Program-made: the position numbers and the translations under genes
Assembly (NCBI GenBank): GCA_032249235.1
Contig: JAVVGF010000002.1
Span: forward strand, 32,001-96,000
Direction of reading: 5' to 3'
Length of the DNA stretch: 64,000 nucleotides
From: Thermoproteota archaeon
Lineage (GTDB): Archaea > Thermoproteota > Thermoprotei > Gearchaeales > Gearchaeaceae
The notes under the pieces: model-generated
What the model was told of the DNA's origin: nothing
Database searches by the model: none
Seen by the model: the letters and a program-made list of their open reading frames with translations, nothing else
Part shown: one piece after another, positions 28,308 to 33,596 of the stretch
How the letters are laid out: each line of letters opens with the position of its first letter
How positions within the stretch are numbered: the stretch's first letter is position 1

Positions 28308-29332
28308 AAGCAGTATTGATTTTTGGAAAGCTTGATGCTAGAGTTGTTGATGTAGATATACCTAAAATATCTGCTGATGAAATAAGGGTTAAATTACTTG
28401 AATGCGGAATTTGCGGGACTGATATAGAAAAATATGAAGGAGATTTTTTAACACCTCCTATTTTAGGGCATGAAACTGTTGGAATAATAGATGAAGTTGG
28501 AGAAGATATTAAAGAATTCAAAAAAGGACAGCGCGTATTTGTTCATCATCATGTACCCTGTAGAGTCTGTTATTATTGCCTTAAAGGGGATTTCACTTTA
28601 TGCGAACAGTTTATAAAATTTAATCTAGATCCTAGCGGCTTGGCAGAATATTTTAGAGTACCTAGCGAAATAGTAAGAAAGAAAGGAGTTTTCGCATTAA
28701 GCGATAAAATAAGCGATGATAGAGCTACATTTATCGAGCCATTGGCTTGCTGTATAAGGGCTCTTAATAAAATCAAGCCAGAAATAGGAGAAAACGTAGC
28801 AATTTTCGGTGGTGGGCCTGCAGGTTTACTTCATTTGTTATTATTAAATAAAGTATATGGAGCAAGAGTTGCAGTCGTTGAAATTAATGAAAAACGCTTA
28901 GAATTTGCTCAAAAAGTTGGTGCTGAAATATTAATTAACCCTTTAAAACATGACACGGTTGAAGAATTAAAAAAATGGTCTTATGGAAGAGGCGTCGATG
29001 TTGCAATCGTAGCTACAGGTAATGTTGAGGCAGTTAAACAAGCTTTGAAATCTTTAAGAAGAGGAGGAAAGCTATGTTTATTTGGAAGTCCTAAAAAAGG
29101 AACTGAAATAATCTTAGATTTAAGCTATGTTTTTATAAACGAGATCAAGATAATACCTTCCTATTCTACTACCGAATTCGAAATTATGCAATCTATATCT
29201 TTATTGGAAAGAAGCATAATCGAACCTGAGATACTAATATCACATAAATTCAAGCTAGAAGAAGCTGTAGAAGCATTGGAAAAAACAAGAAAAGGTGAAA
29301 CGATTAAGGCTGTGATTGTGAATACTAAATAA
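28304..29332 (+). CDS. Zn-dependent MDR alcohol/polyol dehydrogenase
   Basis: CGICGTD, GHE, CRVCYYC..C, EPLAC, GGGPAG. Confidence 0.9.
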   Translation: MKAVLIFGKLDARVVDVDIPKISADEIRVKLLECGICGTDIEKYEGDFLTPPILGHETVGIIDEVGEDIKEFKKGQRVFVHHHVPCRVCYYCLKGDFTLCEQFIKFNLDPSGLAEYFRVPSEIVRKKGVFALSDKISDDRATFIEPLACCIRALNKIKPEIGENVAIFGGGPAGLLHLLLLNKVYGARVAVVEINEKRLEFAQKVGAEILINPLKHDTVEELKKWSYGRGVDVAIVATGNVEAVKQALKSLRRGGKLCLFGSPKKGTEIILDLSYVFINEIKIIPSYSTTEFEIMQSISLLERSIIEPEILISHKFKLEEAVEALEKTRKGETIKAVIVNTK

Positions 29333-30611
29333 GTACTGAATCTACGAGCTCTTCAAGATTTTCTTCTGAACTTGTTAAAACTTTATCAAAGCTTACGATA
29401 ACAAAATCTAAGCCTAATTCTTGAGCGTATCGATAGACTTCTAATAATTCTTGTTTTGTAGGATATCTAGCAATTTCTGCATATCTCTTATCATATTTTG
29501 AAGATAATGGATTGCAGAAATTATCAGGATGATATTGATACATAATATTGACTAAAACATCTGGCATGTTTTCGTTTATCCATTTCAAAACAGGTTTTGA
29601 GCAACATTCTACATGGTTTGGCATGATTAAATGTCTTATTACCATATTGTCTCCCCATTCATATACTAATTTATGATTTCTAGAAACAGTTTCGAAATAC
29701 CAAGGAGTTCGTGACAACTTTATAGCGCAATTATTATTACCGAATTTGAAATCAGGTAAGTAAATATCTACAATTTCTCTTAATAATTTCATAAGCTTAT
29801 CGCTCATGAAGAAATTTGAGTTCCACAAGATGGGGGCGTTGAATTCGTTGTTATAATAAGCATTTCGAGGATCCATTTTATAAATGAAGAAATCTGAATA
29901 TGCATTCAGAATATAATTTAGATCCCTTTGGGAAGGTTTCAATTCGCATAGTTCTCTTATTGCTTCAATTATTGTATGAAAATGAATAGTTGGTTCACCT
30001 CCTACAAGATTTATATTATGACATCCTTCCATTCTTAGTTGCCACATCATTAAAGCTAATTGCCTAGGTGTTATAGGAATTCCATTGAATCTATCTGTAC
30101 TAATATCGCCATTTTGACAAAAAGCACAGCGCATATTACAACTCGTGAAGAATATCGTGCCAGAGCCCATTGTGCCACGAAAAACTAATTCCTCTCCTCT
30201 ATGATGAAAATAGCTACTTACTCTGGAAATATCTTCTAATTGACATGTTCCCAGCTTTTCGCCTTTTGTTCTATCTACTCTACAATTCCATCTACAAAAT
30301 TCGCAATGCTTTAAAAGACGCTTGGCTAATTCAACTTTAAGATCAAGAAAGTTAGGACGGGCAACAGGTATATTTTCGATTTTAACTTCTTCATTCTTTA
30401 CCTTTTGAAATAAATCAAGGAATTCTTCAGAAAGTCTATCATGTTCTTTCCATAATTCATCTTCATCAGAATTTCTAAGAACTAAAGAACAAGGAATACG
30501 TCTGCAAATCAAATATTTTGCAGGCTTCTTATTTATAGAAACCTCATAATACCAATTTAATTTCCTTCTTATATTCTCATATGACCAAACCCAAAGTTTT
30601 TCAAAACTCAT
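29325..30611 (-). CDS. PflX-like radical SAM protein
   Basis: CNMRCAFC, SGTIFF, GCHNIN.VGGEPT, YLPDFKFGN, IRHL.MPNH.ECC. Confidence 0.88.
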   Translation of the reverse strand: MSFEKLWVWSYENIRRKLNWYYEVSINKKPAKYLICRRIPCSLVLRNSDEDELWKEHDRLSEEFLDLFQKVKNEEVKIENIPVARPNFLDLKVELAKRLLKHCEFCRWNCRVDRTKGEKLGTCQLEDISRVSSYFHHRGEELVFRGTMGSGTIFFTSCNMRCAFCQNGDISTDRFNGIPITPRQLALMMWQLRMEGCHNINLVGGEPTIHFHTIIEAIRELCELKPSQRDLNYILNAYSDFFIYKMDPRNAYYNNEFNAPILWNSNFFMSDKLMKLLREIVDIYLPDFKFGNNNCAIKLSRTPWYFETVSRNHKLVYEWGDNMVIRHLIMPNHVECCSKPVLKWINENMPDVLVNIMYQYHPDNFCNPLSSKYDKRYAEIARYPTKQELLEVYRYAQELGLDFVIVSFDKVLTSSEENLEELVDSVLI

Positions 30612-30625
30612 CTAATAATACAATG

Positions 30626-30931
30626 TTACAAAAGACCTTTATTTCTTAATATTTCATCCAATTTTTTAGCATCTCTACAAATAATATGCAAAGTTGTGTT
30701 CTCTTTTATGTCCAAGTCTCTGATTCTTTTACTATCGTCTATTTCCCTGTTTTTATAGATTATTTTGAAAAGTTCTGGATGATCTGAAAGTTTATATTTT
30801 TCTAATATACGCTTTTTTAAATTAAAGATACTTTCGTTAGGATCGATTTCTAAATTTACAATTTTTTTATTAAAGATAGAAAAAGAAATTGTTTCTTTAA
30901 AAATAAAAGTCTCGTTTATTCTTATTTTCAC
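30626..30931 (-). CDS. eukaryote-type ubiquitin-like (beta-grasp) protein lacking a C-terminal GG
   Basis: KIVNLEIDPNESIFNLKKRI...FKIIYKNREIDDSKRIRDLDIKENTTLHII aligns with ubiquitin [20 protein letters not shown]...[30 protein letters not shown]. Its start overlaps the htpX stop. Confidence 0.85.
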   Translation of the reverse strand: MKIRINETFIFKETISFSIFNKKIVNLEIDPNESIFNLKKRILEKYKLSDHPELFKIIYKNREIDDSKRIRDLDIKENTTLHIICRDAKKLDEILRNKGLL

Positions 30932-31806
30932 ATTATATAAATGCCCATTTCCTTAGCTATTTGTTTTAGTCTTTCTATTCTTTTCTTAGTTGAAGGATGT
31001 GTTGAGAACCATTCAATAACATCCTCAGCAGTGATGCCCTTTCTAAAAGGATTTGCTATCCATAGAGATGCCGTTGTTTGTGGAGCATCCAACCTTGCTC
31101 CAGACATTATGTAGTTTTCTATTTTAGTTAGAGCTGAAATTAAATCTTGAGGTTTGCCAGTCAATTTTGCAGAAGTATAATCAGCAAGATATTCTCTAGC
31201 TCTAGATATTGCTAATTGAATCAAAGATGCTGTAAACGGTGCAAGAATATAAGTTGCTAGCGCTAGCGCTACTTCACCTCCATTCCTACCTCTTGCTAAT
31301 ACTACTAAGAACAAGAAATATGCCAACCAGGTGATTGCTGAAGCAATAGCAGCAGCAATCGTAGCAACTAGCACGTCTCTATTAACAACATGTCCTATTT
31401 CATGACCGAATACAGCTTCCAATTCGTCATCATTCATTATTGTTAACAAACCCGTAGTAGCTGCTACAACAGCATGACCGGGACCTCTTCCTGTAGCAAA
31501 AGCATTGGGTTGAGGTGCATTAACGATAGCCACTTTTGGCTTCTTTATTCCTGCTTTCGCAGCAACTCTTTCAACGATTCTATGCAATCTAGGAGCTTCA
31601 GCTTCGCTTACTATTCTTGCTCCAGCACTGTAAAGTACAAGCTTATCTGATATAAAGTAGAAAATAATATTGAGTATTAAGGACATTATGAGGAAAGCAA
31701 AAGCTACTGCAATACCTCCAATCAGGTAACCTATACCTATTAATATCGCTCCTAATAATGCCATTAAAAGAACCGTTTTAACATAAATCTTCAATGCATA
31801 TGCCAT
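30928..31806 (-). CDS. htpX: M48 zinc metalloprotease HtpX
   Basis: PNAFATG, HEIGH (HExxH), SRAREYLAD, FSTHP; TM segments. Confidence 0.95.
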   Translation of the reverse strand: MAYALKIYVKTVLLMALLGAILIGIGYLIGGIAVAFAFLIMSLILNIIFYFISDKLVLYSAGARIVSEAEAPRLHRIVERVAAKAGIKKPKVAIVNAPQPNAFATGRGPGHAVVAATTGLLTIMNDDELEAVFGHEIGHVVNRDVLVATIAAAIASAITWLAYFLFLVVLARGRNGGEVALALATYILAPFTASLIQLAISRAREYLADYTSAKLTGKPQDLISALTKIENYIMSGARLDAPQTTASLWIANPFRKGITAEDVIEWFSTHPSTKKRIERLKQIAKEMGIYIM

Positions 31807-31877
31807 TTCGATTATTAATTTAAAGAAGCTTATTTTTAAACTTTTAGTCAGACTTAAATTTATTGAAGAAGTAATAA

Positions 31878-32324
31878 GTGATGGTGGCTGTTCCTAAATT
31901 GATGCCTGATGAAATCATTTCAAGAGCAGTATATCCTATGATAAGAGCAATGATTGCTAAGCGCCTTGTTGAGAGATATCATTTTAATCAAAAAGAAGTC
32001 GCAAATATTTTGGGCGTTACACAAGCAGCAATAAGTTATTACCTATCTGATAAAAGAGCTATAATGAAGCAATTCTTTGAAAATGAAGAAATAAAAGAAA
32101 TGGTAAATAAGCTGACTGACGATTTTGTAAGTAATAAGATAGGGAAAGATGACTTGGTTATAGGAATAGTTAGAATAGTAAATTACATTACGAAAACAAG
32201 AGCTTTATGCTCCATTCATCAATTCTATGAGAAAGATTTGAGAATTAATGAGTGTAATGTTTGTTCAGAAAGATTTTCAGCTACTTCTGATTTGATAAAA
32301 ATTCTACGTAGAAATGGAGGGTGA
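31878..32324 (+). CDS. HTH transcriptional regulator (COG2522-like)
   Basis: P.IRA.IA..L......QKEVANILGVTQAAISYY...KR; C-terminal C..H...C..C. Confidence 0.85.
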   Translation: MMVAVPKLMPDEIISRAVYPMIRAMIAKRLVERYHFNQKEVANILGVTQAAISYYLSDKRAIMKQFFENEEIKEMVNKLTDDFVSNKIGKDDLVIGIVRIVNYITKTRALCSIHQFYEKDLRINECNVCSERFSATSDLIKILRRNGG

Positions 32325-32467: not shown

Positions 32468-33596
32468 ATGAAAACTATAGAATTCCTCCTATTTTTTTAT
32501 AATTCTAACTTTTATTGCAGCACAAGCTACTCTAGCTCAAACTTGCCAAGATCTAATTTTAAACATCGGTAAAATAGTAAAATTAGATAACAAATAAGAT
32601 TTGATTTTTTGCAAAATTGAACTAAAAAGCGATTCCAGCTTAATTATTAGATCATCAAGTCTTAGAGTTAATGGAAACATATCATTGTATAATAATGCAA
32701 AACTTACAATAATTAATTCTTCAATCATAATATTAGGAAAGTTTACTTCAATAAATGGATATATAAATATCAATGAAACGAATATAAATGACAAAATTTT
32801 TTGAAAGGAAAAACAAAATTGCTTGCTAGTAATCTTTATACCAATATCTCGAATATAAATATAGAAGATAGTTCAATAGCTTTATAAGTACCATTCAGGA
32901 AGTGAAGTATATAAATAATCTTAATAAAACAACGATTGAAATCTATGGAACTTCTGCTGTGCTAGCCAATTCAAATTTCAACCTAAAAGAATCCGTTCTT
33001 TACTTCATGACTTCAAGCGAATATCCTAAAGCTAAAATAGTGATGAGAAGTTATGAAAACAAAATAGGGATTCTTTCGAACTTCACCTTGAGCAATCTAC
33101 CTTCTTATAAATATATTCATGTTAAAAATTCTAGCAAATGATGGGACTACTGTTTATTCAGTTAAAGATTTAGAAATACATACAAACATACCTCTAAAGA
33201 AACCTCCAAAACCAAACTTATCAATAAACTCAAGTTATTATCCCATTCTTACATGGAACGATCTGAATAATTTAACTATGCCCATTTTAGGTTATTATAT
33301 ATAGAGGAGACTCGCCAAATAACCTCGAAAAAATTGCAACTGTTGATGCAAACCAAACTTCTTTTACAGATATCAACATTTCTTATGGTTCAACTTATTA
33401 TTTTGCTGTATCAGCTTATAATGAAGCAGGAGAAGGCGAAATTTCTAACATAGCAAGTATTACAATATTATATTCTTCAGATATAAAGAGGGAAGAATTT
33501 ATCACAAATACATGGTTGCCTGCAATTGCTATTCTCTCAATATTGATATTCTTAGCTGGCTATTTACTAAAAGTAGTCAAAGAAAAAAGAGCTTAG
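32468..33596 (+). pseudogene. disrupted secreted/membrane-anchored surface protein with fibronectin type III domain
   Basis: Signal peptide broken at a T7 run, several in-frame stops and frameshifts. The 3' part reads ...SFTDINISYGSTYYFAVSAYNEAGEG (FN3), then a TM helix and KEKRA*. Confidence 0.75.

Follow-up and report, generated by a model that had tools for sequence, protein, structure and literature searches.

The ubiquitin fold can serve without conjugation: Hub1/UBL5 and the ubiquitin-like (UBL) domains of Rad23, Dsk2 and parkin have no usable C-terminal diglycine (GG) and bind non-covalently. Apart from Hub1, each of these UBLs forms part of a larger protein, and the roles of these proteins lie in splicing or proteasome delivery; to our knowledge, no non-conjugated eukaryotic UBL pairs with an M48 protease. 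Archaeal proteins of the ubiquitin family (PF00240) have hitherto been described within full operons for ubiquitin (Ub), E1, E2, RING and JAB components (PMC3082918, PMC5654768, PMC6043591), Caldiarchaeum-type ubiquitin being encoded in JAB-Ub-E2-E1 operons (Nunoura 2011, PMC3082918; PMC5654768; PMC6043591). In bacteria, as reported in PMC6194340, BfUbb of Bacteroides fragilis is 63% identical to ubiquitin, carries a signal sequence and is a secreted antibacterial toxin acting on a periplasmic peptidyl-prolyl isomerase (PPIase); two further papers deal with it (PMC5705921, PMC11467351). In this study, we analysed a window of 64,000 nucleotides (nt) from a Thermoproteota archaeon (contig JAVVGF010000002.1 of assembly GCA_032249235.1, positions 32,001 to 96,000), to which all coordinates below refer unless a locus is named. 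Its minus strand carries three closely packed genes, in the order htpX, a gene for a 101-aa stand-alone ubiquitin-family protein (hereafter UBL) and a radical-SAM gene. We report that UBL has the family and fold of ubiquitin, that it ends without GG and that its gene is strictly coupled to htpX, and we weigh the proposal that it is a non-covalent accessory of the HtpX protease.

UBL genuinely belongs to the ubiquitin family and is of the ubiquitin type rather than the ThiS/MoaD type. Its open reading frame (ORF) is present as originally described, at 30626..30931 on the minus strand with htpX upstream, and its product matches Pfam PF00240 at 45.7 bits (E 5.4e-12), above the gathering cut-off of 25.4. 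Rad60-SLD is its second Pfam family, and the 6 families listed at E <= 0.1 include neither PF02597 (ThiS) nor PF09138 (Urm1). A phmmer search of PDB sequences aligned residues 21-86 with residues 9-72 of mono-ubiquitin (E 7.7e-8), the neighbours of UBL in the ESM Atlas are PF00240 or Rad60-SLD clusters, and precomputed annotation places PF00240 on all 11 full-length relatives. An AlphaFold2 model built from an alignment of nine family members reached a predicted local distance difference test score (pLDDT) of 88.6, and the PDB entries listed for it by Foldseek are ubiquitin, ubiquitin variants and ubiquitin fusions. The first of these, 2gbj_B (E 7.6e-8, TM score 0.68/0.80), is a 9-10 loop-insertion mutant of ubiquitin, a telling match because its insertion sits in the same loop as that of UBL. 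A VIA scan of 48,161 representative chains, independent of Foldseek, gave a ubiquitin variant as the top match (Z 11.6, root-mean-square deviation 1.8, 77 residues), followed by domains of parkin, ISG15, Fubi, Rad23, Dsk2, SUMO and Hub1. ThiS, MoaD and Urm1 are absent among the 50 VIA matches and the Foldseek matches listed, which does not thereby exclude a family that is not listed. Profile, sequence and structure searches therefore all bear out the initial impression of a likeness to ubiquitin itself and not to ThiS, MoaD, SAMP or Urm1, and no non-ubiquitin fold stands at the top of the structural comparisons. A second PF00240 match in the source genome (22 bits, below the cut-off) falls in a 211-aa ORF that by eye is formyltransferase-like, and was treated as spurious. 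As to the kind of ubiquitin that UBL resembles, a profile of its family scores three eukaryotic Ub units at 25.3-25.9 bits, compared with 7.5-16.0 bits for 25 operon ubiquitins of its own phylum. Since eukaryotic ubiquitin outscores these, 'eukaryote-type' is a fair label, Asgard sequences being outside the comparison.

Within this fold, UBL and its relatives have features of their own. In the AlphaFold2 model, strand beta1 (residues 2-6) is followed by an inserted beta1-beta2 loop (residues 7-23) with about 16 extra residues, at the start of which the alignment, model and translation place NETFIF (residues 6-11; 30899..30916, minus strand); ETFIF, from E7 to F11, is invariant in 9/9 aligned sequences. 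The sole cysteine, Cys85 (30677..30679, minus strand), sits at the position of ubiquitin L71, directly past the last strand; in the alignment and translation it is invariant, and it is present in clusters P0153-P0159 as well. Where ubiquitin has LRGG, the model has a basic amphipathic C-terminal helix (residues 88-98, AKKLDEILRNK; 30638..30670, minus strand), in which alignment shows L95 and R96 to be invariant, and the family's proteins are basic throughout (isoelectric point 9.0-9.6). The equivalents of the L8-I44-H68-V70 interaction patch of ubiquitin are F20, I58, H82 and I84. The suggestion that this patch is kept stands for the I44 and V70 equivalents, which remain hydrophobic among relatives, and fails for the H68 position, which is occupied by H, Y, M or R.

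The absence of a diglycine, noted for UBL at the outset, turned out to hold for the whole family: none of the tails of the 11 full-length clusters contains GG, and no glycine is conserved across them. The lone Gly99, at position -3, is found only in genus g1; it is displaced in g2 and elsewhere is Asn or Arg, these residues replacing it in 6/11 full-length clusters. Because this glycine is not conserved, the data speak against the C-terminal clipping there that the original prediction had offered as an alternative. Conjugation genes had been noted as missing near UBL, and they are lacking on the scale of the genome too. E2 (PF00179) and JAB (PF01398) were found in 0/4 carrier genomes (G000, the source genome, with G002, G003 and G008; 89-95% complete), compared with a positive control, G143, in which both families were detected; Prok-JAB was not found in the source genome. 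In that genome, the sole ThiF-type E1 has a ThiS-family partner to itself, an 88-aa protein with VTGG at its end (ThiS 43.5 bits, Urm1 24.6 bits), and the E1 gene overlaps the stop of this partner. These two genes form part of a cluster on contig C3 (L003 67-3470) that consists of a gene for a pyridoxal-phosphate (PLP) enzyme (PF00291), the 88-aa ThiS/Urm1-type gene, the ThiF-type E1 gene and a 312-aa gene, the first three of which overlap or abut; by its gene content, it appears to be a prokaryotic sulfur-carrier or SAMP-type arrangement, separate from UBL. With no C-terminal glycines, in a lineage with neither E2 nor JAB, UBL would on sequence grounds have lost the capacity for conjugation.

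These observations bear on the idea that UBL is a precursor whose tail is cut, by HtpX or another protease, to give a mature form that is conjugated non-canonically. Caldiarchaeum-type ubiquitins offer a parallel, in that they carry short post-GG extensions cut by a JAB protease (as reported in PMC6043591), and the gene next to that for UBL, and apparently translationally coupled to it, encodes a protease. Set against this are the lack of any conserved tail glycine and the replacement of Gly99 by Asn or Arg described above, a tail that is instead a conserved helix with invariant residues, the absence of E2 and JAB from the carriers searched, and the pairing of the only E1 of the source genome with a ThiS-type GG protein of its own. 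We regard such a precursor as highly improbable.

The family is very small. Among 5.8 billion proteins, 15 belong to it at E <= 1e-5, comprising 11 full-length sequences (101-105 aa) and 4 fragments. Among GTDB species genomes, UBL occurs in 8/12 of the order and 8/120 of the class; all 8 carriers belong to a single GTDB family of hot-spring Thermoproteota (f1), where they make up 8/9 genomes in three genera, and UBL was found in 0/111 of the remaining class genomes. The source genome (1.43 Mb, 18 contigs, 91% complete, 31.7% G+C) was assembled from DNA that, possible source samples being set aside, hot-spring metagenomes of three studies (runs X5-X9) also contain. In a search of representative proteins, nearly all of the 150 matches listed were polyubiquitins and the only orthologues among them were P0001 and P0129, and this search is therefore uninformative on distant single-domain relatives. 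No HtpX-UBL fusion came out of a search for longer relatives, which gave only one poly-UBL protein (P0095) and counts as weak evidence, and a scan of viral contigs found no UBL relatives. One metagenome match, L098, was rejected as an unrelated ORF of 2472 aa. P0003, which is identical to the UBL of G003 (L014 5998-6303), is publicly named 'ubiquitin-like protein [Geobacterales bacterium]'; its source is probably a mislabelled metagenome-assembled genome (MAG), since the family's carrier genomes are titled Thermoproteota archaeon. The G+C content at third codon positions of the UBL gene (0.218) matches that of its genome (0.233 +/- 0.032 over 958 long ORFs) and so gives no sign of recent transfer.

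In every carrier, the UBL gene is joined to htpX. In the window, htpX (30928..31806, minus strand) encodes a 292-aa membrane zinc metalloprotease of the M48 family, which matches PF01435 at 145.1 bits (cut-off 20.3). Its HEXXH motif is HEIGH (residues 135-139), with H135, E136 and H139 invariant in 30 sequences, and its best NCBIfam matches are all HtpX models, yet under their equivalog cut-offs (274.7 vs 369 bits). The stop of htpX and the start of UBL share 4 nt (ATGTGA), which confirms the overlap first proposed, with the correction that UBL starts at GTG and not at ATG. Such an overlap, of 1-8 nt, is common to all the carriers, which come from 3 genera (8/8 genomes; 4 nt in g1 and g2, 1 nt in G006, 8 nt in G007 and G008), and the same gene order was seen in 3/3 metagenome loci, at least one of which duplicates G003. 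G001, the sole f1 genome without UBL, provides a natural comparison. At the syntenic site (contig C54), the flanks are intact (macro, ADH, a 294-bp gap, the regulator described below and a surface protein), and the non-coding gap (L108 1207-1500) contains no htpX, no UBL and no remnant of either. htpX and UBL have thus apparently been lost together, and the linkage to htpX that was to be checked in relatives is conserved, both in the overlapping stop and start of the carriers and in the absence of both genes from this site.

The contigs of a hot-spring metatranscriptome, RNA library X10, cover 30487-30747, bridging the junction of UBL with the radical-SAM gene, and 30888-31773, comprising htpX and the first 44 nt of UBL. 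That both gene junctions are bridged is a weak hint of co-expression and establishes neither transcription nor a joint transcript, as DNA may be present in such libraries and a contig over two genes does not prove a single transcript; no contig lies over 30748-30887, and nothing is inferred from this gap. In one 916-nt X10 contig the order is circularly permuted, with a join (31773/30888; 'goes back 886') that leads from 30888 to 31773 and is absent from the three DNA runs. This contig may have arisen in assembly, or it may represent a circular RNA that takes in most of htpX together with the first 44 nt of UBL.

We propose that UBL, as a ubiquitin-fold protein that is not conjugated, serves as an accessory of HtpX and docks on the cytoplasmic face of the protease, a proposition that we judge to be evenly balanced. 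We adopted it in view of the gene content of the source genome, in which htpX is the one M48 gene, two genes are Cdc48-like (C5:25653 and C1:311766) and no M41 domain of the FtsH type was found. In the mechanism that we envisage, htpX and UBL would be translationally coupled and both proteins would therefore be made together; HtpX would lie in the membrane with its active site facing the cytoplasm, where UBL, which is soluble and basic, would attach as an accessory subunit. Contact would probably be made through the features peculiar to the family, namely the beta1-beta2 loop, enlarged and carrying ETFIF, the I44-like patch of hydrophobic residues, Cys85 and the C-terminal helix with its amphipathic character. 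Binding may act by gating or inhibiting the protease at its zinc site, perhaps by means of the ETFIF loop or Cys85, or by bringing in substrates or an unfoldase.

For physical binding to HtpX there is weak computational support. A prediction of the complex from a 30-row alignment for HtpX and 9 rows for UBL was rated 'weak support', with a score of 0.45 against 0.00 for the best of 3 controls; the runs scored 0.48, 0.45 and 0.45, with contact agreement of at least 65% and partner pLDDT of at least 81. In calibration, the mark was reached by 58/80 solved complexes and 2/110 mismatched pairs, and within the band of scores at or below 0.60 by only 7 of the 80 solved complexes and both of the passing mismatches, counts that hold roughly here since custom alignments were used. 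Modelling UBL with HtpX, as first suggested, therefore separated the pair from its controls and left it in the weak-support band, with no interface reported. Taking the gene overlap and the joint loss as prior, we read the score as a modest rise in the odds of binding.

Several points weigh against an accessory role. Pairs that score in the band of 0.45 are wrong in more cases than they are right, except where binding was already likely on other grounds; the prediction reported no interface between HtpX and UBL, and gene overlap speaks for co-expression, not for binding. HtpX does not need UBL, since in 3 genomes of families f3 and f4 no UBL gene follows its close orthologues (52-58% identity), nor does such a regulator stand next to them. 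Independence of the synteny counts is also lacking, because the 8 carriers represent only 3 genera of one family, and G001 is 67% complete, so both genes could sit in its unassembled part. The evidence for binding thus consists of comparative genomics and one weak structural prediction.

The same evidence can be read to mean that UBL is non-conjugated and merely co-regulated with htpX, for example in a stress operon with the divergent regulator, and binds a Cdc48-like ATPase, the proteasome/PAN or a chaperone, in the manner of the UBLs of Rad23 and Dsk2 or of Hub1. The lack of GG, E2 and JAB fits this equally well, the two Cdc48-like genes and the missing FtsH of the source genome are consistent with it, as is the weak complex prediction for HtpX, and the UBLs of Rad23, Dsk2, parkin and Hub1 are among the structural matches (Z 9.9-11.5). 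We consider this the less likely reading, as stop/start overlaps in 8/8 carriers and the apparent joint loss in G001 exceed what co-regulation needs; HtpX was also the sole partner modelled, so nothing positive backs another one. Returning to the proposed HtpX accessory, it can be extended to a view in which HtpX and UBL form a pared-down archaeal version of the quality control that eukaryotes exercise over membrane proteins. A never-conjugated UBL would be a built-in ubiquitin signal that gates the zinc site or recruits a Cdc48-like unfoldase, and the pair would stand in for FtsH. Gating would then use the single invariant cysteine or the ETFIF loop, and the Cdc48-like unfoldase would extract clipped membrane proteins. 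The eukaryote-like sequence of UBL would in that case go back either to an early stage at which ubiquitin was used non-covalently or to a gene that came from a eukaryote-like donor and was then re-purposed. We consider this extension unlikely.

Downstream of UBL, 14 nt separate its stop from the start of the radical-SAM gene (29325..30611, minus strand), which encodes a 428-aa enzyme and is a variable neighbour. The enzyme matches PF04055 (45.5 bits) and Fer4_12 (28.6 bits), and contains CNMRCAFC at residue 158, with a CX3CX2C core, and an extra CEFCRWNC at residue 103. The name 'PflX' given to it in the original prediction could not be confirmed: the Pfam domains are the generic Radical_SAM and Fer4_12, all 13 NCBIfam matches are far under their cut-offs, and neither Pfam nor NCBIfam has a model specific for PflX/COG1313. 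No relative was found among PDB sequences, and a full-text search found no literature combining 'PflX' and 'radical SAM'. The gene directly follows UBL in 5/8 carriers; ADH takes its place in G003 and G002, and in G005 the contig ends. It is present in 10/12 genomes of the order, the G002 copy lying on another contig, and no homologue was found in G003 (95% complete) or G005. In family f2 it occurs in 3/3 genomes, in unrelated contexts and without UBL, and G001 also has the gene without UBL. The close spacing and the radical-SAM domain thus agree with the operon as first drawn, and constant membership does not. A comparison of neighbours in the 8 carriers shows instead that the constant unit is the regulator, htpX and UBL.

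This distribution also bears on the notion that the adjacent radical-SAM enzyme acts on UBL or partners with it, for example by modifying Cys85 or the tail, in which case the two would make up a modification system. The short gap between the two genes, their adjacency in 5/8 genomes, the single invariant cysteine of UBL and the extra cysteine cluster of the enzyme would suit such a relationship. We think it improbable, given that G003 has UBL and no radical-SAM homologue that we could find, that the copy in G002 is on a different contig, and that the f2 genomes and G001 have the enzyme without UBL.

Upstream of htpX, a divergent gene on the plus strand (31878..32324) encodes a 148-aa helix-turn-helix (HTH) regulator, recognized from weak HTH Pfam matches, synteny, the alignment and the model, and it is found in this place in 8/8 carriers. 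Its alignment contains an invariant motif after the HTH, C111-x2-H114-x11-C126-x2-C129, which on sequence may be a metal or redox sensor. The model is all-helical (pLDDT 80) with no PDB fold match at E <= 0.001, and relatives of the regulator family occur in 104/120 genomes of the class. Between htpX and the regulator gene lies an AT-rich stretch, 71 bp as read from the sequence (31807..31877), which presumably holds divergent promoters; an alignment with the corresponding regions of relatives showed no conserved operator. A scan for sigma-70 promoters and terminators gave 16 sites vs 15.5 expected, with a bacterial model that is not applicable to archaea. Beyond the regulator, 32878-33593 (plus strand) holds remnants of a gene for a large surface protein, which in relatives is about 630 aa, rich in N-x-S/T and ends in a C-terminal transmembrane helix. 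The gene is intact in G004, G005 and G006, and looks truncated and frameshifted in the source genome, as only residues 391-629 match, split over three frames.

If UBL does bind HtpX, the pair would be the first instance in prokaryotes of a protease assisted non-covalently by a ubiquitin fold, a simple two-protein system in which the ubiquitin fold could be studied without conjugation, and a new handle on the control of HtpX, whose regulation is poorly understood. The finding bears on the evolution of ubiquitin signalling. Its reach is limited by a very small family known from hot-spring MAGs only, so that experiments need heterologous expression. Full-text literature searches, the scope of which did not extend to supplements, returned no report of an archaeal ubiquitin without GG tied to a membrane protease. 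The papers found by them contain no link between HtpX and a ubiquitin-like protein in archaea, and those on archaeal ubiquitin, diglycine, beta-grasp and non-conjugated proteins describe known conjugation systems only (including PMC2948915 and PMC11354881).

UBL can be compared with several described systems. One is the Caldiarchaeum-type ubiquitin, likewise an archaeal PF00240 protein of the same phylum. A PF00240 match is present in 69/401 sampled Thermoproteota genomes, and in 5/5 inspected loci (30 were fetched) the order was JAB, a ubiquitin ending in ...TRTVGG, E2 and E1, as confirmed with Pfam for L064. In many genomes of L035-L064, a second PF00240 match lies 1.5-2 kb downstream within an ORF of some 400 aa and is perhaps a ubiquitin-like domain within E1. 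The operon ubiquitins, in which a short extension may follow the terminal ...TRTVGG, stand between JAB, E2 and E1, whereas UBL has none of these and is only distantly similar to them. With eukaryotic ubiquitin, UBL shares family and fold (about 27% identity over Ub 9-72), the TLH motif that precedes the last strand and residues equivalent to I44 and V70; it differs in having a helix in place of LRGG, an insertion of about 16 residues between beta1 and beta2 and a basic pI, and in being archaeal and single-copy in a genome with no conjugation machinery. Among prokaryotic ubiquitins that lack GG, BfUbb is the closest precedent. Like UBL it is a eukaryote-type prokaryotic ubiquitin that has lost its glycines, has a role other than conjugation and carries a cysteine near its C-terminus. 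UBL is much less similar to ubiquitin than BfUbb, is archaeal and coupled to htpX, and judged by sequence has no signal-peptide-like N-terminus. Finally, Hub1 and the UBLs of Rad23, Dsk2 and parkin, close to UBL in structure, would resemble it in their working mode rather than in family membership.

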